NCBI GenBank assembly: GCA_043825735.1
Contig: JBDRRP010000072.1
Coordinates: 1-40,641 of the forward strand
Length of the DNA: 40,641 nucleotides
From: Pseudomonadota bacterium
GTDB lineage: Bacteria > Desulfobacterota > Desulfobacteria > Desulfobacterales > JBDRRP01
Direction: 5' to 3'
In this document: positions 13 through 26,985 of the stretch, piece by piece
Position numbering within the stretch: position 1 is the stretch's first letter
Layout: every line of letters begins with the position of its first letter
Notes under the pieces: model-generated
The model's database searches: none
Told to the model about the DNA's origin: nothing
What the model saw: only the letters and a program-made list of their open reading frames with translations
Position numbers and translations under genes: made by a program

Positions 13-40
13 AACCACGAAACACACGAAACACACGAAA
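13..40 (+). repeat. Solo left arm of 9-bp periodic element (CACGAA core x3)
   Basis: aaccacgaaacacacgaaacacacgaaa; CACGAA at 16, 25, 34; same family as 14314-14393; no inverted partner downstream. Confidence 0.7.
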
Positions 41-177
41 GAAAAATGGATAAACGATAACGGGCTGATCTACCCTAAAAAGCGTGCACCGGGCGGCGCC
101 ATGGCAACGGTGCCGCGCCTTTAATTCGTAGATAATTGCGATTATTTTTTTACCATTTTTCCTGTGAATAGAAATTT

Positions 178-1746
178 ATGACGGCAGATCGCATCAACAC
201 CAAAATTCTCGTCACCGGCGCCACCGGCTATGTGGGCGGGCGGCTGGTGCCGTTGCTGGCGGCGCAGGGCTACCGGGTGCGCGCCATGGGGCGATCGCTG
301 GACAAGCTCAACTGCCGGCCGTGGGCCCGCCACCCGAATGTGGAAACCGTCCAGGGCGATGTGCTGGATCTTGGCGCTTTTGCCAAGGCGGTTGATGGCT
401 GCGAAGCGGCGTTCTATCTGGTCCATTCCATGATCGCCAGCGACAAGGGCTTTGCCGACGACGATCGCACCGGTGCGTTGAACATGGCCGCCGCGGCCGC
501 CGCCTGCGGCCTCAAGCGCATCATTTACCTGGGCGGTCTCGGCGACAGGGACCACGAGGCGTTGAGCCCTCACCTGCGGTCCCGGCACGAGGTGGAGAAA
601 ATCCTCGCCGCCGGGCCTGTGCCGGTGACCAATCTGCGAGCGGCCATGATTCTGGGCTCCGGCAGCGCCAGTTTCGAGATGCTGCGCTACCTGGTGGAAC
701 GGCTCCCGGTGATGACGCCGCCGCGATGGGTCAAGACACCCTGCCAGCCCATCGCCATCGGCGACGTTTTGGCTTACCTCATCGGCTGTCTGGAAAACGA
801 AACGACCGCGGGCGGCACCTTCGATATCGGCGGCCCGGACGTGGTGAACTACCGGGATCTCATCCGGATCTATGCCGAGGAGGCGGGGCTGCCAAGACGC
901 CTGGTGATCACCGTGCCGGTGCTCACCCCTTACCTCAGCGCCAAGTGGGTCCATCTGGTCACCCCGGTACCGGCGTCCATCGCCCAGCCACTGGCCGAAG
1001 GGCTGGCCGTTCCAGTGGTCTGCCGGGACACCCGCATTCTTAATCTGGTGCCCATCGGCCGCACCTCCGTTCGCGAGGCCATGCGAACGGCCCTGGACAA
1101 GATCCTCACCCACCAGGTGGACACCTGCTGGTTCGATGCCGGCCAGATGCACCCGCCGGAGTGGTCGGCTTGCGGGGATGCCAATTGGGCCGGCGGGACC
1201 CTGATGAGTTGCGGTTACCGGGCCCGAATCCGCGCAACGCCGGCCGAAGTCTGGGAACCGGTTACGCGAATCGGCGGCAAAACCGGCTGGTACGCGTTCA
1301 CTGCGCTCTGGTGGCTTCGGGGGTTTGTGGACCGGCTGATGGGCGGGTATGGACTGCGCCGGGGCCGCCGCCACCCGCGGGATCTCTGGGTGGGCGACGC
1401 CCTCGACTTCTGGCGGGTGCTGGCGGTGGTGCCGGAAGAAAAGCTGGTGCTGCTGGCGGAGATGAAAACGCCCGGCGAGGCCACACTGGCATTTGAAATC
1501 ACGCCGTTTGCCGACGGCACCACCGAACTGCTGCTGCGATCACGGTTCCTGCCAAAAGGCCTGGCCGGCATTCTCTACTGGTACATCCTCTATCCCTTTC
1601 ACGAGATGATCTTCTTTGGCATGGCCCGGAACATGGCGCGGTCCATCGGTGCTGAAATCTTAGAGGGGCCGGAGCGGTTCACGCCGAGGATCGCCGAAAG
1701 TTGCGCCTTGCCGGGTGCATTGACGAAAAACCATCATCAGGATTGA
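178..1746 (+). CDS. Atypical SDR / NAD(P)-binding oxidoreductase with C-terminal DUF2867 (YbjT-like)
   Basis: Rossmann motif VTGATGYVGG; LRAAMILGSGSASFE; C-terminal GDALDFWRV...LLAEMKTPGEATLAF. Confidence 0.9.
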   Translation: MTADRINTKILVTGATGYVGGRLVPLLAAQGYRVRAMGRSLDKLNCRPWARHPNVETVQGDVLDLGAFAKAVDGCEAAFYLVHSMIASDKGFADDDRTGALNMAAAAAACGLKRIIYLGGLGDRDHEALSPHLRSRHEVEKILAAGPVPVTNLRAAMILGSGSASFEMLRYLVERLPVMTPPRWVKTPCQPIAIGDVLAYLIGCLENETTAGGTFDIGGPDVVNYRDLIRIYAEEAGLPRRLVITVPVLTPYLSAKWVHLVTPVPASIAQPLAEGLAVPVVCRDTRILNLVPIGRTSVREAMRTALDKILTHQVDTCWFDAGQMHPPEWSACGDANWAGGTLMSCGYRARIRATPAEVWEPVTRIGGKTGWYAFTALWWLRGFVDRLMGGYGLRRGRRHPRDLWVGDALDFWRVLAVVPEEKLVLLAEMKTPGEATLAFEITPFADGTTELLLRSRFLPKGLAGILYWYILYPFHEMIFFGMARNMARSIGAEILEGPERFTPRIAESCALPGALTKNHHQD

Positions 1747-1825
1747 TCCCGCGATGGCGTCGTGAAGCACCCCCTCATTTTACCTTGAATAATATCTCGT
1801 TGCGTCGACGCGTCGTTGCGTGAGA
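1746..1825. repeat. Periodic inverted-arm element, CGTTGCG family (degenerate left arm)
   Basis: Right arm cgttgcgtcgacgcgtcgttgcgtgaga (1798-1825) nearly identical to 16596-16623; left arm atcccgcgatggcgtcg; lies between convergent genes. Confidence 0.6.
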
Positions 1826-1869
1826 TTGTTTTTATTACATGGACCGCGCAGTGAAGGGGACGTGATCGG

Positions 1870-2313
1870 CTATCGGGGGAGGTGCTCCGGGGCAGTGGCG
1901 AAGGGACTGACGACCGTCACAGCTCCGATGGTCTGCTCCGGTTGAAGGTCTTCGGTCAGCAGATATATGCAATCGGATGCCTGTGCTGCTGAGACAATCA
2001 ACGCATCCCACCAGGATATCGCATAGCGATCCTGGATGGCCCAGGCGCCCTCGATGACGGTGGTGTCAACCGGAAGAGGATTCCAAGTTATGAGGGATCG
2101 AACGTCCGTGCGCGCAATGTCTGCCGTCAGGCCGGGTTTAAGTTTTTGAGTGACGGTAATGTAGTATTCCTGTAATACTTGATAACTCAGGCGGCCGTTT
2201 TGATCCTGCCACAGTCGTGTCATCCACGCCATGGCCCGCTTTTGCTTATCGGGCTCCGAAGCGTCTCGGCTGTAAACGAGGACGTTGGTATCGACAAATA
2301 CGCTATCGCTCAT
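1870..2313 (-). CDS. vapC: PIN-domain (VapC-like) toxin
   Basis: MSDSVFVDTNVLVY...ISWWDALIVSAA...LLTEDLQ PIN motifs; start overlaps the end of the upstream small ORF. Confidence 0.9.
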   Translation of the reverse strand: MSDSVFVDTNVLVYSRDASEPDKQKRAMAWMTRLWQDQNGRLSYQVLQEYYITVTQKLKPGLTADIARTDVRSLITWNPLPVDTTVIEGAWAIQDRYAISWWDALIVSAAQASDCIYLLTEDLQPEQTIGAVTVVSPFATAPEHLPR

Positions 2314-2533
2314 GGAGCGCATCCCTGGAAGGGTAGACCACGCCGGGGTCTTTGATCATCATGGGGGGTTGGGAAATGAATCGCTTCATTGCCGCCCGAT
2401 ATTCTTTTTCAGCAAGCATTTCCCGTTTCAGCATTTGGCCCACCATTCGCGAGAGGCTCAGGTCATTTTTGGCGGCCTGAATTCTCGCCCACTGGGCGAC
2501 CTCGGGCTCAAGTGTGATGGTGATGTTTTTCAT
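2303..2533 (-). CDS. Ribbon-helix-helix (CopG-like) antitoxin, 76 aa
   Basis: MKNITITLEPEVAQWARIQAAKNDLSLSRMVGQML, C-terminal SRDALHER; overlaps the PIN gene. Confidence 0.85.
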   Translation of the reverse strand: MKNITITLEPEVAQWARIQAAKNDLSLSRMVGQMLKREMLAEKEYRAAMKRFISQPPMMIKDPGVVYPSRDALHER

Positions 2534-2568
2534 GACAAGAATATAGTGTGACACGATTTTCGTGTCAA
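2534..2568 (-). promoter_or_regulatory. Sigma70 promoter with overlapping palindromic operator for the TA operon
   Basis: Minus strand TTGACA-N17-TATATT-N6-ATG; inverted repeat TGACACGA-ttt-TCGTGTCA at 2549-2567. Confidence 0.8.
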
Positions 2569-2597
2569 GTTTGAGCTGGGAAAAAGGAGGTTTTTCA

Positions 2598-3215
2598 ATG
2601 AACGGATATGGACGCAACCGTGGCACTGTCTCATCGATCATTCTCTCTGTACTGTTTATCCTTGCGGCGGGCTGCGCCACCAACACCGGCCAGCAGGCCG
2701 GAAAAACAGCCGGCATCGGGGCTATTGCCGGCGCTGCCGGCGGCGCGCTGAGCGCGGCCATATTCGGCGGCAATGTGGGCGAAGCCATGGCCCGGGGCGC
2801 CGCGTGGGGCGCCGGCAGCGGTGCCGTCGGCGGCGCCATCGCCGGCTCCCAGATGGACGAGGCCGCGGCCAGCACGCCGGAAGCCAAGGCCGCGAAGCTG
2901 AAAAAGGACATCGGCGACGACGCCTTCAACGGGCTGACCGCGATCGTCGATTGCGATTATACGGCGGCCCTTGCCGATGCTGAAAAGGCCAAAGCCTCCA
3001 GCAACAACGAATACGCCGTGGCAGGCCTGTGGGTGGAGGCCCTGGTCTACTTCGACAGTCGTGAAGAGGCCAAGGCCCGTGCATTGTATCCGGAGATTTT
3101 TAAACAGGACAAGCATGTCTCCACGGAGAAGCAGGCCGAGGAGCACATCCGAAAGGGTCTCGATCAGATCATGCAGACCCGGGAGAAGCGCAACAAGCCT
3201 AGGATATGCCAATAG
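2598..3215 (+). CDS. Glycine-zipper lipoprotein with helical C-terminal domain
   Basis: AGGAGG RBS; lipobox LAAGC; GAIAGAAGGA...GAAWGAGSGAVGGAIAG glycine zipper. Confidence 0.75.
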   Translation: MNGYGRNRGTVSSIILSVLFILAAGCATNTGQQAGKTAGIGAIAGAAGGALSAAIFGGNVGEAMARGAAWGAGSGAVGGAIAGSQMDEAAASTPEAKAAKLKKDIGDDAFNGLTAIVDCDYTAALADAEKAKASSNNEYAVAGLWVEALVYFDSREEAKARALYPEIFKQDKHVSTEKQAEEHIRKGLDQIMQTREKRNKPRICQ

Positions 3216-3287
3216 GCCGCGATTTGCTGGTAAGCTGAGACTTGAACAACCTAATCCTTCGTAGATGGGAACATTGAGGCATTGAAA

Positions 3288-3458
3288 AGGGTTCAAGGCG
3301 TCGAGGGTTCGAGGGTTCAAGTGAACTGCAAAAGCAAAAAACTAAGTGCATAGGCGTTTGCGGCTTTTAGACTGAGGAGCCTCTGCATCCCCCTTCGGCA
3401 CTGAAGTTTTGTTGTTGGTTTTCACTTGGCCCCTAGAACCCTTGACCCCTTGGACCCT
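3288..3458. repeat. 8-bp periodic inverted-arm element (GGTTCRAG family)
   Basis: Left agggttcaaggcgtcgagggttcgagggttcaagtgaa (3288-3325); right ttcacttggcccctagaacccttgaccccttggaccct (3421-3458); ~95-nt spacer. Confidence 0.8.
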
Positions 3459-3462
3459 GTTT

Positions 3463-4422
3463 TTAGAAATCCCACATCACCGGGTTGTCATCCAGGTGGT
3501 CGGTGACGCTGCGGCCGATGGCGTCCATTTCTGAAAGATCTTCCACTGAAAGAACGACATCACCGGCGGCGGCGTTCTGCCTGACCTGGTCGGCGCTACG
3601 GGCGCCGGCGATGGCGCAGGTGTTTTCGTGGGCGACGACCCAGGCCAGGGCGAGCTGGCCCAGGCTCACACCGTTTCGCTCGGCGATGGGGCGCAGTCTG
3701 GTCAGTGCGGCCTGGACCCACGACCACATTTCTGGCTGAAAGAGGCGACTGCCGGCACGGTGGTCGCCCTTGTCGAAAGTGTGGTCCGGGCCGAATTTTC
3801 CCGTGAGAATGCCCTGGGCCATGGATGAGTAGGCCAGAATGGTGATGTCGTTTTCCCGGCAGAAGGCCACGGCATCCTTTTCCACGTGGCGCCAGAAGAG
3901 CGAATAGGGCGGCTGCAAACTGTCGATGCGGCCGTATTTCATGGCTTCGGCGATCTGATCACCGGAAAAATTGCTCACTCCGATGGCCCGGATCTTTCCC
4001 TGTTGTTTTAGATCGTTCAGTGCCCGCATGGTCTCCTCAACAGGCACCATTTTGCTGCCGAAGGCCCCGGCAGGCCAGTGGATTTGGTACAGATCGATCC
4101 AGTCGGTACCCAAATCTTTGAGAGACTGCTCACAGGAGGCGATCACCTGGTCGTAGGCCAACCGGTTGGCAAAAACCTTGGTGGCATAGACGACCTTGCT
4201 GCGGACCTCTCCCAGCGCGGATGCAATGATGCGTTCGCTGTGCCCGTTGCCATAGACCGTGGCCGTGTCGATGGTGGTGATGCCGGCATCCACGGCGGCC
4301 CTGAGCGCACGGATGGTATCGTTGTCGTCGATGCCGGTCCACATGGTCTTGCCGGCCTGCCACGTGCCCATGATGATCGGGGTGATCTGGATATCTGTTT
4401 TTCCCAGGGGGATCGTGTCCAT
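3463..4422 (-). CDS. Aldo/keto reductase
   Basis: IDTATVYGNGHSE, IDLYQIHWP, GKIRAIGVSNFS, LAYSSMAQGILTGK. Confidence 0.95.
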   Translation of the reverse strand: MDTIPLGKTDIQITPIIMGTWQAGKTMWTGIDDNDTIRALRAAVDAGITTIDTATVYGNGHSERIIASALGEVRSKVVYATKVFANRLAYDQVIASCEQSLKDLGTDWIDLYQIHWPAGAFGSKMVPVEETMRALNDLKQQGKIRAIGVSNFSGDQIAEAMKYGRIDSLQPPYSLFWRHVEKDAVAFCRENDITILAYSSMAQGILTGKFGPDHTFDKGDHRAGSRLFQPEMWSWVQAALTRLRPIAERNGVSLGQLALAWVVAHENTCAIAGARSADQVRQNAAAGDVVLSVEDLSEMDAIGRSVTDHLDDNPVMWDF

Positions 4423-4600
4423 GATTTTCTCCTATTCGGTTATGCGGAATGTTTCAGTTGGTCTCTTCCCGCAGTGATATTGAGCCATGGAGAGTTTATA
4501 ATGCCGATACAGCAAAATTCAACCGAAGTGTTTTCACCCGCAGCCCTGGAGGCGGCTCCCCGCGGCGGTGTCCCCACACCATTTTATCCTGCACTTTTAA

Positions 4601-4629
4601 TTGACTTGTGCTGTGGCTGCCGGTAACCT
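4601..4629 (+). promoter_or_regulatory. Putative sigma70 promoter of the octaheme cytochrome gene
   Basis: TTGACT-N17-TAACCT about 50 nt upstream of the start. Confidence 0.5.
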
Positions 4630-4680
4630 TGCACTACGATCGCCAATACGTTGCGTGTTTGCTGAATCCCTTCTTTCCAA

Positions 4681-6192
4681 ATGCCGGAGCCCGCCGTGAA
4701 AAAAATTTTATCTTATGTCATGTTGGCCGCCGTCACCTGGATCGCCGCAATGCCTGTTTACGGCGCTGCCCCCGTCAGTGATGCCACCCAGGAGTGCCTG
4801 GACTGTCATGCCACCTTCCACCCCGGGATCGTTGCCGATTGGCGCGCCAGCCGTCATGCCCAAATGACGGTCCAGGAAGCCATCATTGTCGAGGATGTCG
4901 CTCGGAAAGTCTCTGCCACCGACATCCCCGCACCGCTGCTCAATGTGGCCGTGGGTTGCGCCGAATGCCACACGCTCAGAAACGAAAAGCACGCCGACGC
5001 TTTTGAGCACAACGGCGCGGACATTCACGTGGTAGTGAGTCCTGATGACTGTGCCACCTGCCATGCGGACGAGCGTCAGCAGTACTCGAAAAACCTCATG
5101 GCCCATGCTCACAGCAACTTGGTGGACAACGATTTGTACCGTGATCTTCAGCGCAACATTTCCGGACCCGCCGAAGTGAAAGACGGCGCCCTGGTCTTCG
5201 GCACGCCGTCCACCGCCACCCAGGAAGACTCCTGCCTGTATTGCCACGGCACCCGACTGGCAGTGACCGGGCGCGAAATCCGGGACACCGACGCCGGAGA
5301 GTTGGCGTTTCCTGTCATTAGCGGGTGGCCCAATCAAGGGGTGGGCCGGGTGAATCTTGACGGCAGCCTCGGGTCATGCTCGGCTTGCCACACGCGCCAC
5401 GGGTTCAGTATCGAAGTCGCCAGAAAGCCTCATACCTGCAAGGAGTGCCATGTCGGGCCGGATGTGCCTGCCGTGAAAGTCTACGAGGCCAGCAAGCACG
5501 GCAACATTTTTTCTTCGCTTAACCAGGACTGGGACTTCAAGACGGTCCCCTGGGTGGTGGGCAAGCACTTCACCGCGCCCACCTGCGCCGCCTGCCACGT
5601 GAGCCTGCTCACCAATACCGACGGGTTGGTGGTGGCCCAGCGCACGCATCAGATGACCGATCGACTGGCCGACCGCCTTTTCGGGCTGGTCTATGCTCAC
5701 CCGCAGCCGAAAAGCCCGGAAACCCAGATTATCCGAAGTCCCTCCGGACTGTCCCTGCCCACCGATCTGGACGGTACCCCGGCCAGCGCATTTCTCATCG
5801 ACACCGACGAGCAGGGCCGGCGCCGCGATGTTATCAAGGGCGTCTGCGTGAGCTGCCACGACCGGTCCTGGGTAAGGGGGCATTTCGAGCGGCTCGATCA
5901 CGTGATCGGCGAAACCAACGCCACCGTGAAAGTCGCCACCGGCATCATCTCCAAGGCCTGGACGGACGGTATCGTGAGCGGCCCGCCTCAGAAAAAGAGT
6001 CCCTTCGATGAGGCACTGGAGCGCACCTGGATGGACGGCTGGCTGTTTTACGCCAATACGGTGCGTTTTTCCGCGGCCATGGGCGGCGGCGGCGACTACA
6101 GTACTTTTGCCGACGGCCGCTACCAGCTCACCCGCAGCCTGCTGCAGCTCCACCAGGGATATCAGCAGGGAATGGCAGCCATAAAGAAATGA
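4681..6192 (+). CDS. Periplasmic octaheme cytochrome c, hydroxylamine oxidoreductase (HAO/OCC) family
   Basis: Signal peptide; eight CxxCH motifs (CLDCH, CAECH, CATCH, CLYCH, CSACH, CKECH, CAACH, CVSCH); WPNQGVGRVNLDGSLGSCSACHTRH and YEASKHG signatures. Confidence 0.9.
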   Translation: MPEPAVKKILSYVMLAAVTWIAAMPVYGAAPVSDATQECLDCHATFHPGIVADWRASRHAQMTVQEAIIVEDVARKVSATDIPAPLLNVAVGCAECHTLRNEKHADAFEHNGADIHVVVSPDDCATCHADERQQYSKNLMAHAHSNLVDNDLYRDLQRNISGPAEVKDGALVFGTPSTATQEDSCLYCHGTRLAVTGREIRDTDAGELAFPVISGWPNQGVGRVNLDGSLGSCSACHTRHGFSIEVARKPHTCKECHVGPDVPAVKVYEASKHGNIFSSLNQDWDFKTVPWVVGKHFTAPTCAACHVSLLTNTDGLVVAQRTHQMTDRLADRLFGLVYAHPQPKSPETQIIRSPSGLSLPTDLDGTPASAFLIDTDEQGRRRDVIKGVCVSCHDRSWVRGHFERLDHVIGETNATVKVATGIISKAWTDGIVSGPPQKKSPFDEALERTWMDGWLFYANTVRFSAAMGGGGDYSTFADGRYQLTRSLLQLHQGYQQGMAAIKK

Positions 6193-6245
6193 TGGTTGTT
6201 CAATTATAGAATGCCTTGAGCGGAAGGGCTGCAACCCAAAAACCC

Positions 6246-6335
6246 ATTCTCGCGCGGAGACGCAAAGACGCTGAGGAATTAGTAAGTTATCTCTGCGTCC
6301 TCTGTGGCGATTTCAGACTTTTACGGGACTGCCAA
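6246..6335. repeat. Chimeric 9-bp periodic inverted-arm element ending in a TIR half
   Basis: Left tctcgcgcggagacgcaaagacgctgag; reverse complement of 6277-6335 (ttggcagtcccgtaaaagtctgaaatcgccacagaggacgcagagataacttactaatt) matches 23191-23259. Confidence 0.75.
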
Positions 6336-6337
6336 TT

Positions 6338-6472
6338 TTGATGAATCCGTAGAAAAGCAATTTTCTCGCAAAGACGCCAAGCCCGCCAAGAAAAACTCCA
6401 TTAATATTAGTGTGTTGCCTTTGTGACCGTTGCGGCTTTGCGAGAGATTCGGACTTTTTACGGGAGCATCAA
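6338..6472. mobile_element. MITE-like element: outer TIRs enclosing 9-bp periodic inverted arms
   Basis: TIRs ttgatgaatccgtagaaaag / ctttttacgggagcatcaa; inner arms tctcgcaaagacgccaagcccgccaag / ctttgtgaccgttgcggctttgcgagaga. Confidence 0.7.
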
Positions 6473-6511
6473 TCTTTGGCCTTACACCTTTTTCCTTCAA
6501 CCCAATCAACC

Positions 6512-7917: not shown

Positions 7918-8044
7918 CACGGACGAACACGGACTGACACGGACTGACACGGACTGACACGGACTGACACGGACTGACACGGACTGACACGGACTGACAC
8001 GGACTGACACGGACTGACACGGACTGACACGGACTGACACGGAC
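7918..8044 (+). repeat. 10-bp tandem repeat (GGACTGACAC)x11 with degenerate flanking units
   Basis: Eleven perfect copies at 7931-8040; variant ggacgaacac at 7921. Confidence 0.98.
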
Positions 8045-9522: not shown

Positions 9523-9738
9523 TTTCGCAGAGACGCGGAGAAAGGCAAGAAGAAAAATACCACGGCGGGTTATCACCGTTATTGGTTTGACATCCTTTAG
9601 ATCGGGGTCGTTTCTGGTTGTTCTTGATCATCCTCACCAAAGACTGGTAATTCTTTTTTGCATATTGGTTTGAGGTTTTCTCTGCGTCTCAGCGGCTTCT
9701 TGCCAGGGCGTAGCTCGCAGCGCGAAGCCTGATGCGAG
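9523..9738. repeat. 9-bp periodic inverted-arm element with small insert in its right arm
   Basis: Left tttcgcagagacgcggagaaaggcaag; right ctctgcgtctcagcggct[insert ~9702-9735]tgcgag. Confidence 0.65.
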
Positions 9739-13480: not shown

Positions 13481-13646
13481 CAAACTCGCAAAAAGCAATT
13501 TTTAGCATCAGACTTCGCTCTGCTTGCTACGCACGACCAGGTAAAAAGCCTGAAATCACCACAGAGAGCGCAGAGACCACAGAGGTAAACAAATAATTGT
13601 TAAACATATTCTCTGCGTCCCTCTGCGATCTCTGCGGTTCAAAATC
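13477..13646. mobile_element. Composite TIR / periodic inverted-arm element
   Basis: TIR ttgacaaactcgcaaaaag includes the ligase stop codon; insert at 13505-13540; 13541-13646 is collinear with 23202-23307 (both 106 nt). Confidence 0.8.
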
Positions 13647-13661
13647 GGTTTTTTTCTTTTT

Positions 13662-14292: not shown

Positions 14293-14313
14293 CAGATGCG
14301 CCATTGCCTATGA

Positions 14314-14393
14314 AACCACGAAGAACACGAAGTGCACGAAGAAAAATATAAAATTAGATATAAAAAGAAATGATCTTCGTGAACTTCGTGGTT
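14314..14393. repeat. 9-bp periodic inverted-arm element (CACGAAG family)
   Basis: aaccacgaagaacacgaagtgcacgaag, ~33-nt AT-rich spacer, cttcgtgaacttcgtggtt. Confidence 0.85.
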
Positions 14394-16271: not shown

Positions 16272-16623
16272 TCCCGCCACGACGCTACGAGATCAATTTG
16301 TACTGTCTTTTAAAATCTGGTCCTCAGGACCAGGTCAGAGATAATTGGCTATGTCGCAAAAACACGTCTCGCGCAGAGACGTAGAGGCGCAGAGAAAACC
16401 ATGAATTTTTCCATCTTCGCCGGATATGACCCAAATCTTCTTGTCGCTGTAAGCTTGAACAGGTTTTTCGCACGATAGTGCGAGGAGATCCTGGTTTTGA
16501 TTTTCTCTGCGCCTCTGCGTCTTTGCGCGATGAAGCCCCTTTCAGGGGCAACCTAAAGCCTGGCCATCAGGGTCAGGAATGTTTACTTTTTCTGCCGTTG
16601 CGTCGTAGCGCCGTTGCGTGAGA
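16272..16623. repeat. Three-layer nested repeat element
   Basis: Outer CGTTGCG-family arms (16272-16290 / 16596-16623); middle small hairpins ctggtcctcaggaccag and cctggccatcagggtcagg; inner CGCAGAG arms (16367-16400 / 16493-16530). Confidence 0.75.
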
Positions 16624-19699: not shown

Positions 19700-19851
19700 C
19701 GCAGCCTCCGGTTCGCATAACGAGCGGTATGGGCGAAAGAGAAATGCAGTGACGCCATCCTAACACATTGCAGCTCAGGGTGCACTCCGTTTGCGGAAAT
19801 CAGGATGGGCATGAGACTGCTTAAATCGGTTGATCCGCGGTTCGGTGGCCG

Positions 19852-19959
19852 TCAGTCCTGATCATTTCCCAGCATTTCTTCAGTTTCCATCCACATGACA
19901 TTGATGATGCCAAATGCGCAGGCCAGCAGCACACCGAGGATCCATGAAAAATACCACAT
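19852..19959 (-). CDS. cydX: Cytochrome bd oxidase small subunit CydX, 35 aa
   Basis: MWYFSWILGVLLACAFGIINVMWME; GGAGG RBS; downstream of cydB. Confidence 0.92.
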   Translation of the reverse strand: MWYFSWILGVLLACAFGIINVMWMETEEMLGNDQD

Positions 19960-20042
19960 ATCGATGCCTCCGTTGGTTATAGCCCGGAACGATTGTTTCC
20001 GTGCCGTGGTTTTTTGTGTCATCACTGCCCGCGGTTTCGGGG

Positions 20043-20072
20043 CCGGCATCGAAGTGAAAATTCCGATGCCGG
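20043..20072. other. GC-rich stem-loop between cydB and cydX
   Basis: ccggcatcg-N12-cgatgccgg perfect 9-bp stem; no U-tract. Confidence 0.55.
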
Positions 20073-20088
20073 TCTTCCACCGGTTTTT

Positions 20089-21234
20089 CTAATACGCGCT
20101 GTGCGTGTTCTCCTCGATATGGGCTTCGGTGACCTTGCCGCGCATGATCCGGTAGGCCCAGGTGGTGTAGACCAGCACCAGGGGTAAAAACACCACCACC
20201 ACCGCGAACATGAGATTCAGGGTGCGGTGGCTGGAGACCGCATCGAAGACGGTCAGGCTGTGGCCCGGATGCGTGCTGGACGGCATAATGAAGGGGAACA
20301 TGGCAAAGCCGGCGGTGAGGATCACGCCGGCCAGGGCCGTCCCGTTGCAGATCAAAGCCAGGCCGGGTCGGTCGATGCGGCTCAATGCGATGGCCAGAAT
20401 GCCGCAGAGAAAGACCGCCGCTGGGGCCGCCATCATGAGCGGGTACCGGGAGAAATTGTCCAGCCAGGCGCCTTTAGTCGTCTCGACGGTTTTCATTAGC
20501 GGGGTCAGCACCCCGCCGGCATCGGGCATGGAGACGATCCGGTAGCCATCGATGCCAACCGCCTGCCACACGCCGGCCAGGGCAAAGGCCGCCAGGAAGA
20601 CGGCGCCGAAAAGTGTGGCGGCGGTTTTGGCCCGCAAACAGAGCGTGCCTTCTGTTCGCATCTGCAGATAGATGGCGCCGTGGGTGATGAGCATGGTCAG
20701 ACTCACCACGCCCACCAGCAGGCCGTAAGGATTGAGCAGTCCCCAGAAGCTGCCCGTATAATAGGCGCGCATGAGATCGTCATAATGGAAGGGTACCCCC
20801 TGGAGGAGATTGCCGAAAGCCACCCCGAATACCAGTGCGGGGACGGTGCCGCCTGCAAAAAGTCCCCAGTCCCATGCGTTGCGCCAGCGAGGGTCGGCAA
20901 TTTTGCTGCGATAGTCGAAACCCACCGGCCGAAAGAACAAGGCAAAGAGCACCAGCAGCAGGGCCCAGTAAAACCCGGAAAAGGCCGTGGCATAGACCAT
21001 GGGCCAGGCAGCGAAAATGGCCCCGCCGGCGGTGATGAACCAGACCTGGTTGCCTTCCCAGGTGGGGCCGATGGTGTTGATGAGCACCCGCCGCTCGTTG
21101 TCGTTTCTCCCCAGGAAGGGCAGCAGCGCACCCACCCCCAGGTCGAAGCCGCCCAGCAGGGCGAAGCCGATGAGCAGCGCGCCGACCAGCAGCCACCAGA
21201 TGACTTTCAGTGTGACATAATCAAAGAGTATCAT
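20089..21234 (-). CDS. cydB: Cytochrome bd ubiquinol oxidase subunit II
   Basis: GFDLGVG, IGPTWEGNQVWFITAGGAIFAAWP, FRPVGFDYRSK. Confidence 0.97.
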   Translation of the reverse strand: MILFDYVTLKVIWWLLVGALLIGFALLGGFDLGVGALLPFLGRNDNERRVLINTIGPTWEGNQVWFITAGGAIFAAWPMVYATAFSGFYWALLLVLFALFFRPVGFDYRSKIADPRWRNAWDWGLFAGGTVPALVFGVAFGNLLQGVPFHYDDLMRAYYTGSFWGLLNPYGLLVGVVSLTMLITHGAIYLQMRTEGTLCLRAKTAATLFGAVFLAAFALAGVWQAVGIDGYRIVSMPDAGGVLTPLMKTVETTKGAWLDNFSRYPLMMAAPAAVFLCGILAIALSRIDRPGLALICNGTALAGVILTAGFAMFPFIMPSSTHPGHSLTVFDAVSSHRTLNLMFAVVVVFLPLVLVYTTWAYRIMRGKVTEAHIEENTHSAY

Positions 21235-22814
21235 GATGCCTCCTCTCCCAGACGGGCTGCGGTGGGCTGTTCAAAATGATAGCGCCCGGTGTGCAGGCTG
21301 CTGGGTCCCATCTTGATGAAGCGGATCATCAGGAACGCTTCTACGATAAGGAAGATGGTGTAGAGCAGCACCAGGGCGATGAGGCTGCCGATGACGCTTG
21401 CCGGCGTGAGCGAGGACACGGACAGCGCCGTGGGCAGCACTTCACCGATGCTCCAGGGCTGGCGCCCGTACTCGGCCACGATCCATCCCATGAAACAGGC
21501 GAGCCACGGGGCCGGAAGACTGGCGATGATCACCTTCAGCAGCCAGTTTTTTTTGTCAAAGGCACGCGTGGCGCAAAAGTAGAAACTCACGGCGATTACC
21601 GCCAGCATCCAGAACCCGAGCGCCACCATGATCCGGAAGGTCCAGAACATCACGAACACGTTGGGGATGGTGGACCGGGCCGCTTGCTGGATCTGCGCGT
21701 CGGTGGCATCGAGCACACCCGGCGCGTATTGCTGCAACAGCAGGCCGTAGCCCAGGTGGTCCCGGTGCTCCTCGAACCGGCGGAGGGTTTCGTCGGTCTT
21801 CCGGCCGGCCCGGATCTCGTTGAGCGCCGCGAAGGCGATCATGCCGCTGCGGATGCGGACTTCACTTTCCGCGATAAGGTCCTTGACGCCGATGATGGGC
21901 GTGTCGATGGTGCGGGTGACGATGAGCCCGCCCACCCAGGGCAACTTGATGGCGGCGTCGGTTTCCTGCTTTTCCTGGCGCGGGATGCCCACCAGGGTGA
22001 AGCTGGCCGGTGGCGGTTCGGTCTCCCACTCGGCCTCCATGGCCGCCAGTTTGATTTTCTGTACTTGGCCGGTCACGTATCCGCTTTCATCGCCCAGGAC
22101 GATGACCGAGAGGATGGAGGCCAGTCCGAAGCCGGCGGCCACGGCAAAGGATCTCCGGGCAAAGGCCAGGTCCCGGCCTTTGAGCAGGTACCAGGCGCTC
22201 ACCGCCAGAACGAACATGCTGGCGGTGACGTAGCCCGCGCCAACCGTGTGCACGAATTTGACCTGGGCCACCGGGTTGAAAAACAGCTCCGAAAAACGGG
22301 TGAGTTCCATGCGCATGGTTTCCGGATTGAAAACCGCGCCCACAGGGTTTTGCATCCAGGCATTGGCCACGAGGATCCACAGGGCCGACAGGTTGGAGCC
22401 CAGCGCCACAAAAAATGTCGCCAGCAGGTGACCCCGACGGCTCATCCGGTCCCATCCGAAAAAGAACAAGCCCACGAAGGTGGACTCCAGAAAAAAGGCC
22501 ATCAGCCCTTCGATGGCCAGGGGGGCGCCGAAGATGTCGCCCACATAGTGGGAGTAATAGGACCAGTTGGTGCCGAACTGGAACTCCATGGTAAGGCCGG
22601 TGGTCACCCCCAGGGCAAAGTTGATACCAAAGAGCTTGCCCCAGAACCGGGTCATGTCCTTATAGATCTCCTTTCTCGTCATGACATAAACCGATTCCAT
22701 GATGAAAAGAATCCATGACAGACCCAGGGTTAGGGGGACAAAAATGAAATGATACAGTGATGTCAAGGCGAATTGCCACCGGGACAATTCAACGAGCTCA
22801 GGGGAGGGGATCAT
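21231..22814 (-). CDS. cydA: Cytochrome bd ubiquinol oxidase subunit I (long Q-loop)
   Basis: LSRWQFALTSLYHFIFVPLTLG, MEFQFGTNW, KLAAMEAEW, EYGRQPW; AAGGAG RBS before ATG 22814; ATGA overlap with cydB. Confidence 0.97.
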   Translation of the reverse strand: MIPSPELVELSRWQFALTSLYHFIFVPLTLGLSWILFIMESVYVMTRKEIYKDMTRFWGKLFGINFALGVTTGLTMEFQFGTNWSYYSHYVGDIFGAPLAIEGLMAFFLESTFVGLFFFGWDRMSRRGHLLATFFVALGSNLSALWILVANAWMQNPVGAVFNPETMRMELTRFSELFFNPVAQVKFVHTVGAGYVTASMFVLAVSAWYLLKGRDLAFARRSFAVAAGFGLASILSVIVLGDESGYVTGQVQKIKLAAMEAEWETEPPPASFTLVGIPRQEKQETDAAIKLPWVGGLIVTRTIDTPIIGVKDLIAESEVRIRSGMIAFAALNEIRAGRKTDETLRRFEEHRDHLGYGLLLQQYAPGVLDATDAQIQQAARSTIPNVFVMFWTFRIMVALGFWMLAVIAVSFYFCATRAFDKKNWLLKVIIASLPAPWLACFMGWIVAEYGRQPWSIGEVLPTALSVSSLTPASVIGSLIALVLLYTIFLIVEAFLMIRFIKMGPSSLHTGRYHFEQPTAARLGEEAS

Positions 22815-23030
22815 AACCGAACTCCTTGTGGTTGCGGTGCCGGGGGAACCCTTCGGTGCGGACAGGCTCCCGCCTTGCGGTTTGCGGTTGCGCACCGGCG
22901 GCCGGGGCCGTTATAGTGCACACTGCCTTATATGGTAGCATCTTGCCGGGATGTCAATTGGGATTAACGGAGGACAGGATATGCAGGATAACCATCAGAT
23001 CGGCGTGTCGTTCGAAAACATAAGAAATGG

Positions 23031-23183
23031 CTCTCGCAAAGACGCAAAGCCCGCAGAGAACGGATTAGATTGGCATCGGCAGCCAAGCGTCGCTGATGCG
23101 ATAATTAAGACCGGAATCACCCGAACGGTCAACAGGCACTCTGATTAGAATGTTTCTTGGCGATCTTGGCGGCTTGGCGAGAG
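23031..23183. repeat. 9-bp periodic inverted-arm element (CGCAAAG/CGCCAAG family)
   Basis: ctctcgcaaagacgcaaagcccgcagag, ~97-nt spacer, cttggcgatcttggcggcttggcgagag. Confidence 0.8.
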
Positions 23184-23190
23184 ATAAATT

Positions 23191-23326
23191 TTGACAAACT
23201 CGTAAAAAGTCTGAAATCACCACAGAGTACGCAGCGAGCGCAGAGATAACTTATTAATTATTCATAATATTCTCTGCGGCCCGCTGCGGTCTCTGTGGTT
23301 CAAAATCACTTTTTACGAATGCATCA
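23191..23326. mobile_element. Complete MITE-like element: TIRs enclosing CACAGAG/CGCAGAG periodic arms
   Basis: TIRs ttgacaaactcgtaaaaagt / actttttacgaatgcatca; inner 3+3 heptamer arms around an AT-rich spacer. Confidence 0.8.
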
Positions 23327-23377
23327 GTTTTGATGCACACGATAATAGTTTCCTCTCAGGGGTAAAGGACGCGCTTT

Positions 23378-25162
23378 TTGCCGGTGGAAACCAATGATAA
23401 ATCCACAGAGTCCCGGGCCATTGGCTGGCTTTTGGGCCGGGCGCGGGCCGTGGTGCCCTGGATCGGGCTGAGTGTTGCCGCCGGGCTTTCCGGAGGGCTG
23501 CTGCTCGTGGTCCAGGCCGCTGTACTCTCGCAGCTGGTGGCGGCTGTCTTCATGGATGGGCGCCGCCTGCCGGAGATGGCGATCCCTCTGGCCGTTTTCC
23601 TGGGCATCACGGGGCTGCGGGCACTCATGGCCTGGGCCCGTGAAGTGAGCGGTTTTCAGGCAGGCGCCGTTGTTCGGGAATCGGTGCGCCGTGATCTGCT
23701 GCAGCACCTGGCCGATCTGGGGCCGGACTTTACCGCGCGCACGCCGGCCGGCGCACTGGCCAGCGCCGCCGTGGAACAGGTGGAAGCGCTCCAGCCGTTT
23801 TTTGCCCGGTACCTGCCGCAGCTGGCCCTGGCGGCCCTGATTCCCGGAGCCATTCTGGCGTTCGTGTTCCCGGTGAGTTGGGCCGCCGGCGGTCTGTTTC
23901 TGCTCACCGCCCCCCTGATTCCCCTTTTCATGGTGTTGGTGGGCATGGGGGCCGAGACCATCAGTCAGAGGCATTTCCAGGCCCTGGCCCGCATGAGCGG
24001 GCATTTTCTGGACCTGCTGCGGGGGATGACGACCCTCAAACTGTTCGGCCGCAGCCGATCGGCGGAAGGCAGCGTCCGGCAGGTGGCACGCGACTACCGG
24101 GTCCGCACCATGGCGGTGCTCCGGATCGCATTTTTATCGTCGGCGGTGCTCGAATTCTTTACGTCCATGGCCATCGCTCTTGTGGCCGTGTACCTGGGCA
24201 TGTCCTATCTGGGGTACCTCGACTTCGGCACTTACGGTGAGCGTCTCAGCTTTGCGCACGGGTTTTTTATTCTTCTTCTGGCGCCGGAATTCTTTCTGCC
24301 TCTGCGGGAGCTGGGGCAGCACTATCATGCCCGGGCTGATGCGGCCGGCGCCGCAGAGGAACTGATGCGGGTGCTGGCTATAGAAAGAACCTCTTTCGCA
24401 ATCGCCCCAACCGCGCTGCCTTTTCCCGCTGCACCGCACATCCGGTTCGAGTCGGTGGATCTTTCATATGGCAGTGCCCGCAAGCGCGCGCTGTCGGCAG
24501 TGACCCTGGACATCCCCTTTGGGCAGCACACGGCCGTCGTGGGAGAAAGCGGGGCGGGCAAGACCTCGCTCATCAATTTGCTGCTGGGGTTTGTAGCGCC
24601 TGAAAGGGGGCGGATTCTTGTGGGGGGGGCGCCGCTGCCATTGATTGATCTGACCGCATGGCGGCGCCAGTTGGCCTGGATCGGGCAGCACCCCGTCGTT
24701 TTTTACGGCACCATTGCCGACAACATCCGGCTGGGCCGGCCGGAAGCGGCGCCCGGTGAGATCGCCGCCGCGGCCGAGCGCGCCGGTGTCTTGTCTTTTA
24801 TCCGGACGCTGCCCCACGGGCTCGATACCCGGATCGGCGAGCAGGGGGCCGGACTTTCCAGAGGACAGGCCCAGCGCGTGGCGCTGGCACGGGTCTTTCT
24901 CCGGGATGCCCCCATTGTGCTGCTGGACGAGCCCCTGGCCAGTCTGGACATGGACACCGAACGACAGGTTTCAAAGGCCATTTCGGATTTTTCGCGGGGG
25001 CGCACCCTGGTGATGCTGACCCACCGGCTGGACACCATTCAACGGGTCGATCAGGTGGTGGTGATGGATGCCGGGCGCGTGGCGTTCCAGGGCACACCGG
25101 CGGAATATCGGCGGCGCCGCCTACAGGAGTGCCATCGACCGTTATCCGGGGAGGTGCCATGA
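23378..25162 (+). CDS. cydD: Thiol/heme ABC exporter subunit CydD (start codon uncertain)
   Basis: FFARYLPQ, APLIPLFMVLVG, RTMAVLRIAFLSSAVLEFF, LLAPEFFLPLRELG; Walker A GESGAGKT. Confidence 0.95.
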   Translation: MPVETNDKSTESRAIGWLLGRARAVVPWIGLSVAAGLSGGLLLVVQAAVLSQLVAAVFMDGRRLPEMAIPLAVFLGITGLRALMAWAREVSGFQAGAVVRESVRRDLLQHLADLGPDFTARTPAGALASAAVEQVEALQPFFARYLPQLALAALIPGAILAFVFPVSWAAGGLFLLTAPLIPLFMVLVGMGAETISQRHFQALARMSGHFLDLLRGMTTLKLFGRSRSAEGSVRQVARDYRVRTMAVLRIAFLSSAVLEFFTSMAIALVAVYLGMSYLGYLDFGTYGERLSFAHGFFILLLAPEFFLPLRELGQHYHARADAAGAAEELMRVLAIERTSFAIAPTALPFPAAPHIRFESVDLSYGSARKRALSAVTLDIPFGQHTAVVGESGAGKTSLINLLLGFVAPERGRILVGGAPLPLIDLTAWRRQLAWIGQHPVVFYGTIADNIRLGRPEAAPGEIAAAAERAGVLSFIRTLPHGLDTRIGEQGAGLSRGQAQRVALARVFLRDAPIVLLDEPLASLDMDTERQVSKAISDFSRGRTLVMLTHRLDTIQRVDQVVVMDAGRVAFQGTPAEYRRRRLQECHRPLSGEVP

Positions 25163-26904
25163 GACGCGATCTTGCATCGCTGAGCCCCTTTCTATCGTTG
25201 CTGCGGCCCCACTGGCCGTGGATGGCTCTGGGCATGGTGCTGGGCACGGTCGCCGCACTTTCCGGTATCGGTCTTCTGGCCCTGTCCGGCTGGTTCATTT
25301 CAGCGGCGGCGTTTGCCGGACTGAGCCCTGTGGCGGCCAAACTGTTCAACTTTTTTTTGCCCAGTATCGGGGTGCGCCTGTTTGCGATGACCCGCACCGC
25401 TGCCAGGTATGGCGAGCGTGTCGTTACCCATGATACCACATTTCGTATTCTCGAAAGCCTTCGCCTCTGGTGCTATCGGCGCATTGAACCGCTGGCACCC
25501 GCCGGACTGCTGCGCCACCGCAGCGGGGATCTGCTCAACCGGTTGGTGGCCGATATTGACGCACTGGACAATCTTTATGCCAGGGTGCTGGCCCCGACAG
25601 TGATCGCCGCGGCGTCATCTGCAGCGGTGGTGGTGATGGTCGGCGTCTTCACCCGTCCCGGGGCACTGTGGGTGCTGGCCGCACTTTTTTTAGCCGGTGT
25701 GGGGGTGCCGGTGTGGGCCGGTCTGCGGGGTTTTGCGGTGGGCCGGCGCATTGCCGTGGAGACCGCCACGGTGCGGCGCCGCGTGGTGGACGGCATTCAC
25801 GGGCTGCCCGAACTGCTTGTCTTTGGCGGCTACGGCCGGTATGCCGCCGAATGCATGGACGGACACCGCCGCCTGGTTCGCGAGCAGCGCCGCATGCATC
25901 ATATCGGCGGCGTCTCGTCAGCGCTGTCGGTCTTCATCAACGGCCTTGCCGTAAGCGGGGTCTTTGTGGCCGGGGCTGTGGGGGTCGCGGATCGGCAGTG
26001 GGGCGGCGAAATGCTGGCACTGATGACCCTGGCCGTCATGGCGGCCTTTGAGTCCATTGCACCCCTTTCTGCGGCGTTCCAATACCTGGGGCAGACCCGG
26101 GAGGCGGCCCGTCGACTGACGGATCTGGTGGATGCGCCGCCGGCCGTGGTGTTTCCCGAGGATGTCCCGGCCGGACCGACGGACGGCGGGATAGCGATCA
26201 CCGGACTTTGCTTCCACTATGACCGGAAGGGGCCTCCGGCCTTGGACGGCATCGATCTGGCCATCGCCTCCGGTCAGCGGCTGGCCGTGGTCGGTGAGAC
26301 CGGGTCCGGGAAGACGACCCTCTTTCACCTGCTGGTGCGCTTCTGGGATCCGACTCACGGGCAGATTCGGATCGGCGGCCGGCTGTTGTCCGAATTTTCA
26401 GAGGATGCGCTGCGCCGGCAGATCTGCGTGGTAAGCCAGGAGTCGCACCTGTTTACCGCCTCCATCCGGGACAACCTGACGATGGCGCGGCCCGGGGCCT
26501 CGGACGGCGATCTGTGGCGTGCCCTTGCCGTGGCACAGCTGGAAGGTTTTGTGAGATCGCTGCCTGACGGGCTGGACACCTGGGTGGGGGTTGCCGGCCG
26601 GCTGCTTTCCGGTGGCCAGGCGCGCCGGGTGGCCGTCGCCCGGGGAGTGCTCAGAGATGCGCCCATCTGGCTGCTGGACGAGCCCACCGAAGGGCTTGAC
26701 GATGAGACCGAGCGCCGGCTGGTGGAAGACGTGCTCATTGCCGCGGCCGGCAAGACGCTGGTCATGATTACCCATCGTGCAGCGGGGCTGTCCGCCATGG
26801 ACCGGATCGTGGTGCTGGCACGCGGCCGGATCGTTGAATCCGGATCGCACACGTCTCTGCTCACGGCCGGAGGGCGCTACGCGGCGTTGTTTTCACTTCG
26901 ATAA
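25159..26904 (+). CDS. cydC: Thiol/heme ABC exporter subunit CydC
   Basis: GLLALSGWFI, RTAARYGERVVTHDTTF, SGDLLNRLVADIDALDNLY; Walker A GETGSGKT; ATGA overlap with cydD. Confidence 0.95.
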   Translation: MRRDLASLSPFLSLLRPHWPWMALGMVLGTVAALSGIGLLALSGWFISAAAFAGLSPVAAKLFNFFLPSIGVRLFAMTRTAARYGERVVTHDTTFRILESLRLWCYRRIEPLAPAGLLRHRSGDLLNRLVADIDALDNLYARVLAPTVIAAASSAAVVVMVGVFTRPGALWVLAALFLAGVGVPVWAGLRGFAVGRRIAVETATVRRRVVDGIHGLPELLVFGGYGRYAAECMDGHRRLVREQRRMHHIGGVSSALSVFINGLAVSGVFVAGAVGVADRQWGGEMLALMTLAVMAAFESIAPLSAAFQYLGQTREAARRLTDLVDAPPAVVFPEDVPAGPTDGGIAITGLCFHYDRKGPPALDGIDLAIASGQRLAVVGETGSGKTTLFHLLVRFWDPTHGQIRIGGRLLSEFSEDALRRQICVVSQESHLFTASIRDNLTMARPGASDGDLWRALAVAQLEGFVRSLPDGLDTWVGVAGRLLSGGQARRVAVARGVLRDAPIWLLDEPTEGLDDETERRLVEDVLIAAAGKTLVMITHRAAGLSAMDRIVVLARGRIVESGSHTSLLTAGGRYAALFSLR

Positions 26905-26932
26905 GTGTCTGTCCGTCCAGGATCTTCTCGGG

Positions 26933-26985
26933 ATCGAAATCGATGTTTTTCCAAGGTCGATACCGATACCGATACCGATTTCGAT
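26933..26985. repeat. 6-bp periodic inverted element (CGATAC family)
   Basis: atcgaaatcgat ... tcgataccgataccgataccgatttcgat. Confidence 0.7.

Follow-up and report, generated by a model that had tools for sequence, protein, structure and literature searches.

In the available text on the Coxiella 23S rRNA intervening sequence, heptamer repeats precede the S23p gene (PMC4990558). The corresponding text on Xanthomonas heptamers gives 70-75 inverted pairs per genome and describes no gene-order instability (PMC4692102). Such rRNA inserts and the heptamer pairs of Xanthomonas were the only comparable cases met in the literature covered, mostly freely accessible main texts, in which the cassette discussed below is not described outside rRNA. 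MITEs and mobile insertion cassettes are understood here as defined in the available part of PMC3733652.

The window analyzed here is a stretch of 40,641 nucleotides (contig JBDRRP010000072.1 of assembly GCA_043825735.1) from a bacterium of the Desulfobacterota, whose genome is coded G000; G006, G018, G027 and G030 are the genomes of relatives. The hundreds of gene-less hairpins between the genes of this bacterium are probably what is left of a cassette that is widespread though hardly described, and that usually encloses a tiny gene for a nuclease-like or helix-bundle protein; many of them have multiplied within small transposons. The account favored here, with a probability of about 0.65, has two layers: a selfish hairpin cassette that was emptied, and then multiplied inside IS ends.

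The window copies (Table 1) sit between protein genes, and ten of them fold with z of -1.9 to -11.1 on both strands. An earlier note had reported intergenic inverted periodic elements here, and they are real: every word that it listed is in place, far above shuffled counts. Some of its entries proved to be less than whole elements, however, as those at 13 and 1798 are single arms, that at 16596 is the right arm of an outer hairpin, and that at 6246 is a hybrid half-element. It noticed the inner arms but overlooked the outer, IS-type ends with their target duplications, as well as the 13-unit CACGGAC array.

Table 1. Periodic-arm elements along the window
Feature	Position	Strand	Remarks
Cut end of ~310-bp dispersed repeat	1..149	+	carries arm CACGAAA x3 at 16-40
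Lone right arm, CGCAACG word class (CGTTGCG x2)	1798..1824	+	sole match in genome is right arm of GxxExxY cassette at G000:C54:4016
Hairpin without gene, 8-bp-period arms	3285..3461	.	55-nt arms, 78% complementary, z about -8
Hybrid half-element	6246..6332	.	degenerate left arm plus right arm/right end of 6-bp-TSD MITE
Complete shell-A MITE with CGCAAAG/CGCCAAG hairpin	6340..6470	.	target duplication AATTTT/AATCTT; 78 copies
Expanded single arm, CACGGAC x13, period 10	7918..8044	+	absent from earlier note
Decayed CGCAGAG hairpin, unique 140-nt spacer	9523..9700	.	MITE ends looked for, none found
CRCAGAG hairpin of shell-A MITE lineage, ends decayed	13541..13653	.	81% identical to 23202-23314; 146 matches of at least 100 nt
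CACGAAG hairpin	14313..14393	.	family in older shell B elsewhere; shell unrecognizable in this copy
Outer decayed CGCAACG hairpin (sequence and fold)	16275..16623	.	left remnant 16275-16289, right arm 16596-16623; surrounds element at 16367..16531
CGCAGAG hairpin, 96-nt loop	16367..16531	.	three copies at 91-92%, one at 75%
CGCAAAG/CGCCAAG hairpin, ~97-nt spacer	23031..23184	.	MITE ends looked for, none found
Complete shell-A MITE with CRCAGAG hairpin	23193..23325	.	target duplication AATTTT/AGTTTT; 148 copies, some 98-99% identical
6-bp-period hairpin plus right end of TA-flanked MITE (shell C)	26931..27036	.	left end decayed; 60 copies

The repeat cut by the contig start has 15 matches of at least 60 nt, the top six being 97-100% identical; in intact copies its inverted partner arm lies about 100 bp upstream, which here falls beyond the contig. 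The 8-bp hairpin at 3285 is built of words of the class found on either side of four-helix-bundle genes, with similar arms at G000:C15:27890 and in relatives, and the CACGGAC word also makes an in-frame hairpin within a four-helix-bundle gene (G000:C22:55370). When insertions within genes were sought in order to define element ends, a single case was found, within a four-helix-bundle gene. In the 75% copy of the element at 16367 every word is CGCAACG. All six words have changed together in a homologous copy. Rfam at its gathering threshold gave no match within the window. A promoter and terminator scan of positions 1-17000 returned 9 and 28 sites (5.6 and 17.5 in shuffled sequence), and in that scan the arms were not among the terminator stems, except as short sub-hairpins. 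Of the sequencing runs listed as containing the stretch, one was a DNA run, possibly of the source sample, and none was an RNA run. When the contigs of this run and two RNA runs were compared with positions 9000-28900, no interpretable excision joint came out, and the best 15 of 69 joints resembled paralogous repeats or other organisms; neither circles nor RNA processing were seen, in reads not suited to reveal them.

Genome-wide, the arm words are abundant: CACGAA occurs in 271 arms, CRCAGAG in 324, CGCMAAG in 161 and GGTTCRAG in 73, where a genome after shuffling gives 0-3. A strict, word-agnostic detector found 315 inverted periodic pairs (4 shuffled), and a relaxed 9-bp catalogue holds 1522 non-genic arms (162 shuffled) and 425 inward pairs (1 shuffled). 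What had been taken for separate 9-bp families are instead variants of a single word class, C(A/G)C(A/C/G)(A/G)A(G/T/C/A). The spacers, previously described as variable, are conserved inside lineages, where entire elements are repeated in 58-148 copies. An arm lies near 1 of 50 tRNAs.

Periodic arms, read by eye, flank all seven GxxExxY genes of this genome and all five of its four-helix-bundle matches, which bears out the tie to such genes that the earlier note had suggested; the copies in the window are empty. By eye, arms lie within 160 nt of none of the eight Y1 transposases (PF01797). Genes of PF05635/TIGR02436 (S23p/IVP) carry periodic inverted arms. Such arms occur at 58 of 76 related GxxExxY loci from many phyla, and at 20/29 and 14/29 loci in two further sets, with 0 in shuffles; in the 76-locus set, arms also match between different loci in 44 (a shared word), and 13 match in direct orientation. 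Of 105 proteins, 53 have CACGAAG in both of their arms, and these fall without exception within one 76-row clade from 11 named phylum-level groups, in a quick tree of 118 columns whose GTDB loci are the closest 80 of 392 found, so that one clade is over-sampled. In this tree, the arm word follows the protein clade. GxxExxY and four-helix-bundle genes are found in 51 of 151 genomes of the phylum and 88 of 121 of the order.

PF13366 is given as of unknown function in the available text of PMC3424549. In GxxExxY, residues D69, E79 and K81 (a D-ExK motif) are invariant in all seven copies, and the structure model (pLDDT 92.6) has Cas4, lambda exonuclease and AddAB as its top fold neighbors; every top Foldseek neighbor belongs to the PD-(D/E)XK superfamily, at E of 0.005 or weaker and none under 0.001. 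By fold and motif, GxxExxY is thus a predicted PD-(D/E)XK nuclease. A sequence search of the PDB gave no significant match, and one query of viral contigs gave no GxxExxY relative.

The pairing of arms differs between empty and filled copies. Among 9-bp pairs with gaps of up to 120 nt, pairing is seen at 5829 of 6321 core positions but at only 123 of 630 linker positions (permuted, 186 +/- 11), as the earlier note had said of its elements, although these copies stem from a small number of founders. In filled cassettes (n = 71), by contrast, linkers pair above permutation (104/194 vs about 75); unpaired linkers are typical of the gene-less copies of this genome, not of filled cassettes. That co-variation towards pairing speaks for a reading of the elements as RNA-level intervening sequences outside rRNA. 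The hairpin would then be a target of RNase III, whose cuts render the insert harmless or process an operon; the gene would ride along as a passenger, and only recombination or MITE carriage would spread the element. In Coxiella, RNase III cleaves the 23S intervening sequence at the first heptamer repeat, as stated in the available text of PMC4990558, and in 41 of 70 filled cassettes the right arm begins 0-5 nt past the stop codon, which also suits such a reading. Against it, empty elements have no strand bias (26:18, 16:12 and 7:7) and the sense strand of filled cassettes has no G-U excess (G-T to A-C, 23:24), although equal counts of this kind do not themselves discriminate between RNA and DNA level. 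Moreover, the nuclease motif is intact in every copy and the word tracks the protein clade, neither of which a passenger gene needs. We consider an RNA-level explanation rather unlikely.

Intermediates between filled and empty copies exist. A deleted GxxExxY gene lies between CGCAGAG arms at G000:C88:27824-27953, and deleted helix-bundle genes are found in G018, G027 and G006. A profile search of this genome for remnants found that one deleted GxxExxY only; in most empty copies, therefore, nothing of the gene is left. At the junctions between gatA, a small ORF and mutL, periodic arms were seen by eye in 12 of 22 relatives, three of them with a whole gene; depending on the relative, such a conserved junction is filled, has been emptied or is vacant. 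Such presence/absence polymorphism, together with high copy number, supports the earlier suggestion of non-autonomous mobile elements.

The outer layer consists of classical MITE ends, target duplications included, and within them sit the high-copy families; three shell types can be recognized. For shell A, 82 paired terminal inverted repeats lie less than 3.5 kb apart, 53 of them at 130-140 bp, and target duplications are exact 6-mers in 31 of 80 (permuted mean 1.6) and agree in at least 5 of 6 bases in 52 of 80, while control lengths of 4, 5, 7 and 8 yield 0-1 exact duplications. Its candidate partner is a full element at G000:C38:677-2561, with ends that match shell A and a protein of DUF772 and DDE domains, whose best NCBIfam match, IS1182, is below cut-off (202 of 270 bits); its own flanks agree at 3/6 bases only. 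From the matching ends, this IS1182-like element may supply the shell-A transposase. Shell B has duplications of at least 6/8 bases in 7 of 12 cases in this genome and of at least 6/9 in 6 of 7 in G030, and no partner element for it was among the matches listed. In shell C, 24 short pairs are flanked by TA at either end, where TA is indistinguishable from part of the end; one weak IS1380 candidate matches well at a single end. No shell end at all was found in 142 of 393 pairs, and the class with one shell-B end (55) is close to its control (44). The CACGAAG and CACGGAG families were considered as free of outer ends, a possibility ruled out by the decayed shell around them. Whole cassettes are carried as well: a unit of 548-566 bp, in four copies with TAA/TTA duplications, has one inside, and one copy interrupts an AAA_14/DUF4143 gene.

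MITE carriage yields most of the high-copy families here, and repeated capture and amplification of empty hairpins by IS ends leads to uneven copy number, as in the 104 raw CACGAAG matches here against 0 in a genome of the same genus. One could suppose that nothing but ordinary MITEs is involved, with microsatellite hairpins arising by slippage and template switching and small genes sharing insertion hot spots. The three shell types with duplications would fit, as would shell A's other contents, which include CGTC-REP doublets and other hairpins. This is very unlikely nonetheless, as the same word surrounds one protein clade in many phyla, the deleted intermediates exist, and the same hairpin was taken up by different shells (G000, G018, G030).

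A further suggestion of the earlier note was that the elements may act in recombination and reshuffle the unrelated single genes lying between them, which would make them similar to integron attC sites. A PIN pair and lipoprotein gene between 1798 and 3288, and a block at 13.5-19.8 kb, are missing at the same-genus locus and adjoin elements, and an ABC-transporter deletion terminates near 9523. Yet in the same-genus comparison all eight element-bearing junctions for which both neighbors have orthologues keep their gene order, and order breaks at 2 of 10 elements as against 10 of 25 plain gaps (a small sample). Since the elements also occupy conserved operon junctions in either orientation, with the cognate gene inside the arms, shuffling is highly improbable.

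In the two-layer account, the inner unit would have 2-4 short words as its left arm, then a gene of 120-130 codons and then the same words inverted, GxxExxY cassettes using 8-9-bp words and four-helix-bundle cassettes mostly 6-8-bp ones. With inverted words around a gene, a single strand would fold as a long hairpin with the gene in its loop. Comparison of loci shows that the cassette settles between genes, often straight after a stop codon, and crosses phyla with its word. Internal deletion would drop the gene to give the window's empty hairpins (intermediates are seen), and IS ends would then enclose empty, sometimes full, hairpins for resident DDE transposases to copy as MITEs. For insertion of the bare cassette, the likeliest route, though at somewhat less than even odds, is through action of its own protein on the folded single strand: GxxExxY would serve as a nuclease of Cas4/RecB type, the helix bundle as a nucleic-acid chaperone resembling Avd, and repair by the host would complete the insertion without target duplication. 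At the ends of bare arms, duplication did not stand out clearly from permutation at any offset, whether in empty elements (69, 42 and 36) or in 65 filled cassettes. Word changes might reach all units via slippage and template switching.

Eukaryotic foldback transposons have long inverted ends of tandem subrepeats, with DDE transposases and long duplications. A foldback-like DNA transposon, in which the words are double-stranded sites for a small protein, set in inverted arrays, and the hairpin is a by-product, would account for cores that are better conserved than linkers or loops among MITE copies, for the 9-bp period, for the tie between word and protein clade and for the lack of strand bias. 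It is quite unlikely all the same: the arms end without duplication, one layout is used by two unrelated protein folds, and binding sites alone would not predict linkers that pair above permutation in filled cassettes.

GxxExxY and four-helix-bundle genes are common and without known function, and the word-coded hairpin names a candidate substrate for them; the cassette also connects the intervening sequences of rRNA with heptamer pairs and with many of the repeats between genes. A bolder proposal, which we consider doubtful as it stands, sees in the arm-gene-arm cassettes a class of mobile DNA that spans the bacteria and has no known type of transposase, integrase or reverse transcriptase, in which a 125-residue PD-(D/E)XK nuclease or an Avd-like pentamer would recognize its own word-coded hairpin, insert it behind stop codons and into the loops of other hairpins, and rewrite all its words in concert. 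If true, this would assign a role to two very large families that lack a known function, and account for the inverted short-word arrays of many bacteria.

Among known systems, integron attC arrays have a single orientation, a site after each cassette gene and the gene outside the hairpin, whereas the elements here occur in both orientations, at all junction types, and with the cognate gene within the arms. Foldback transposons share inverted ends of tandem subrepeats, but the arms here are 20-50 nt. Bacterial MITEs are matched by shells A-C in terminal inverted repeats, in duplications of 6, 8-9 and 2 bases, in lack of coding capacity and in a candidate transposase acting in trans; what differs here is the cargo, a periodic hairpin that has a history and cognate genes of its own, and the lack of duplication at bare hairpins. 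REPIN-RAYT systems, or REPtrons, are alike in having intergenic hairpin doublets and a small cognate gene with these repeats on both sides (available text of PMC3733652), but the arms here are tandem words without the GTAG/CGTC tag, and the cognate proteins are PD-(D/E)XK or helix-bundle in type, not Y1 transposases. The GGGAATC arrays of Xanthomonas and heptamer arrays of Nostoc are likewise intergenic short-word arrays, often in inverted pairs; in the available text of PMC4692102 they are interpreted as G-quadruplexes, without a link to mobile elements or cognate genes, and the 9-bp words here are not G-tracts. The rRNA intervening sequences of Coxiella, Leptospira and Xanthomonas (S23p/23S_rRNA_IVP) share with the elements, according to the available text of PMC4990558, a four-helix-bundle gene in a stem-loop, heptamers in tandem ahead of the start codon, variation in repeat number, gene decay through deletion and patchy spread. 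Unlike them, the elements described here lie between protein genes, involve a second, unrelated gene family in GxxExxY, and include hundreds of empty copies as well as MITE carriage.

The dispersed system of periodic-arm elements is real. Across the 6.8-Mb source genome (G000), in which the window is an entire contig (C72), arms number 271 for CACGAA, 324 for CRCAGAG, 161 for CGCMAAG and 73 for GGTTCRAG, against 0-3 in a shuffled genome. A strict word-agnostic detector returned 315 inverted periodic pairs genome-wide (4 in the shuffle), and the relaxed catalogue holds 1522 non-genic arms of the 9-bp class (162 shuffled), with 425 inward-facing pairs (1 shuffled) and 62 outward pairs. Of 393 short 9-bp-class pairs, 229 have one majority word common to both arms, where permutation gives 69. 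Every word listed by the earlier note is present in the window, but the sites at 13 (contig end) and 1798 are single arms, and 16596 and 16367 are nested, the former enclosing the latter. Tandem, convergent and divergent placements were all seen as claimed (49, 14 and 5 of 68 CACGAAG junctions, typed with a home-made gene caller), with divergent gaps under-used relative to background (537/2734). Orientation to transcription is mixed in three sets of empty elements (26:18, 16:12 and 7:7), and an Rfam search of the window gave no match.

The arms are associated with particular genes. G000 encodes seven GxxExxY proteins, five four-helix-bundle matches (three full length) and eight Y1 transposases. 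Read by eye, 9-bp arms lie within 160 nt of all seven GxxExxY genes: arms cleanly enclose three of them, flank two more in reversed polarity and, for the last two, form complete empty hairpins alongside. Arm periods at helix-bundle genes are 8, 8, 7 and 6 bp, the fifth having a 10-bp hairpin in-frame; none of the eight Y1 genes has arms (by eye). The earlier note placed similar arms beside both families in other anaerobes, and the link is borne out in this genome. D69, E79 and K81 are invariant in the seven GxxExxY proteins, whose structure model (pLDDT 92.6) has Cas4, lambda exonuclease and AddAB as nearest folds, none at E < 0.001. One helix-bundle protein weakly matches DGR Avd (E 2e-7, below cut-off).

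Word and protein also travel together across genomes. Of 392 GxxExxY relatives found, the closest 80 were kept, which over-samples one clade, and four of these were dropped for short flanks; inverted periodic arms occur at 58 of the resulting 76 loci, at 20/29 phylum-wide GxxExxY loci and at 14/29 loci of the helix-bundle family, 13 of which have a period of 7 or 8, and at none with shuffled flanks. Direct-orientation control matches were also found at 13, 8 and 6 loci of these sets, and cross-locus arm matches in 44 of the 76 close relatives because the loci have the word in common. In a quick tree (105 proteins, 118 columns), the 53 rows with CACGAAG on both arms all fall within one 76-row clade (SH-aLRT 97) that covers 11 named phylum-level groups; other clades use CRCAGAG, CGCAAAG, CGCCAAG or CRCAGAT.

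Periodic hairpins are carried by MITEs with target duplications, within three types of outer end (shells A, B and C). Recurring elements, spacer included, reach 148, 78, 73, 58 and 60 copies, and alignment of copies with flanks showed that inverted repeats of IS type bound the two largest families. Shell A, with 82 paired ends and exact 6-bp duplications in 31/80 (permuted 1.6), mostly encloses CRCAGAG or CGCAAAG hairpins, and also CGTC-REP doublets. The more decayed shell B surrounds CACGAAG and CACGGAG hairpins, with near-perfect 8-bp duplications in 7/12 copies in G000 and agreement at at least 6 of 9 positions in 6/7 copies sampled from a second genome (G030). The 6-bp hairpin is enclosed by shell C, which has TA on both sides. 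On the 393 short pairs, shell A was found at both ends of 103 and one end of 68, shell B at both ends of 25 and one end of 55 (control 44), and neither on 142. The CACGAAG hairpin is enclosed by shell A in G018 and by shell B in G030; therefore capture recurs. In a gammaproteobacterial bin, a unit of 548-566 bp that carries a whole GxxExxY cassette and is flanked by TAA/TTA duplications is present four times (95-99%), and one of these copies splits an AAA_14/DUF4143 gene. No target duplication was found directly at the arm ends of empty elements or filled cassettes. Transposases probably partner the shells; a 1885-bp element on C38 has ends matching those of shell A and encodes a 559-residue DUF772 + DDE protein (IS1182 nearest, below cut-off), its own flanks agreeing at 3/6. 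At two loci (L119, L142) a full GxxExxY cassette lies within a short inverted repeat, itself within a CGTC-REP doublet.

Deletion intermediates and polymorphism are evident. The gatA-small ORF-mutL interval is covered in 22 of 29 relatives' loci, and by eye 12 have periodic arms, either at a single junction or at both, and 10 (one doubtful) have none. Whole genes remain in three (G027, G030, G037) and deleted helix-bundle genes in three (G018, G027, G006), the others being gene-less; the left arm starts 1-5 nt past the gatA stop in G000 and G030. Arm-less small gene pairs, which we take to be HicAB-like and nucleotidyltransferase-like, occupy the gatA 3' end at L023 and L046, and the junction is thus a general insertion hot spot. 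On C88 of G000 a GxxExxY gene is cut down to its two ends between CGCAGAG arms, the only such remnant that a search of this genome found. Of 41 genomes, five match the CACGAAG hairpin pattern (104, 56, 29, 5 and 1 raw matches), and the same-genus genome lacks it; the shell-A CRCAGAG composite occurs in 3/41, with a single match in two. The elements are thus polymorphic among relatives. The window copies are, as the earlier note has it, empty: relics, several within ordinary MITEs.

The proposal that elements shuffle the genes between them found no support. In a small sample (the window and six 20-kb stretches against fetched same-genus loci, contig ends scored as breaks), element-bearing junctions were adjacent in 8 cases, had one orthologue in 2 and none in 9, versus 15, 10 and 17 at plain gaps of at least 80 nt. 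At all eight adjacent junctions the same-genus genome lacks the element (by eye). Some window accessory genes adjoin elements, which common hot spots would also explain. Upstream of the counterpart of the window's first gene, the same-genus genome has a DUF1722-like gene with a decayed CACGAAG arm. In G000 that gene is on C54 instead: either the genome was rearranged at the 310-bp repeat or the assembly was swapped there.

Coordinates of individual features in the window and elsewhere in G000
Location	Feature	Comparison or context
C54 11150-11600; window 1-149	DUF1722-like gene (C54), then 310-bp repeat copy, then another gene	Cut end of repeat is window 1-149
Window 1870-3215	PIN toxin-antitoxin pair and lipoprotein between 1798 and 3288 elements	22-bp gap in same-genus genome
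Window 9466-10120	FtsX permease reduced to 3' piece; deletion begins close to 9523 element	ABC ATPase and long permease in same-genus genome
Window 10134-10802	Pieces resembling broken sensor kinase	Ahead of orphan response-regulator domain
Window 13661-13698	Single CGTC-type REP	Adjoins 13557 element; doublets also shell-A MITE cargo
Window 19852-20022	Small ORF, presumably small cytochrome bd subunit	After cydB
C22:54871-55660 (L020)	Four-helix-bundle gene with suffix domain	In-frame CACGGAC hairpin read as low-complexity protein
C105:28141; C121:32526; C40:78441	CGCAGAG hairpins	In loops of CACGAAG/CACGGAG hairpins
C107:52635-52902	Shell-A MITE, also in orthologous gap of L220	AAACTT duplication in both genomes; cargo differs

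Cores that pair across unpaired linkers had been described, and this stands for empty G000 elements (cores 92%, linkers 19.5% and below permutation, founders few) but not for filled cassettes (n=71, four near-identical copies dropped), where pairing reaches 97% in the cores and 104/194 in the linkers, the latter above the permuted 75; internal loops are therefore not a defining trait. Co-variation between arms is real, and G-T and A-C counts are equal on the sense strand of filled cassettes, so they do not decide between RNA and DNA. In a copy of the 16367 element recovered through its loop alone, six of six words in both arms have changed from CGCAGAG to CGCAACG, which is concerted rewriting. 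Slippage with template switching could produce such concerted words, and the cognate proteins may act on the folded strand.

With the cassette, two large protein families gain a substrate on which they can be tested. In the parts of the sources available, PF13366 is entered as a function-unknown family (PMC3424549), IVP genes are recorded in cas loci (PMC3936711), GxxExxY is recorded once next to a reverse transcriptase (10.1101/2021.01.26.428298), and Xanthomonas inverted heptamer pairs are described without a mobile-element link (PMC4692102); MITE and REP definitions follow PMC3733652, likewise in part. The cassette outside rRNA appears undescribed so far, none being found in the literature searched (mostly open-access main texts). 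That it forms a new class of mobile element is doubtful, at roughly 0.3. The nearest known system is the ORF-bearing 23S intervening sequence, which in Coxiella, in the portion of PMC4990558 available, is cleaved by RNase III and has three GACAGAT repeats ahead of S23p.
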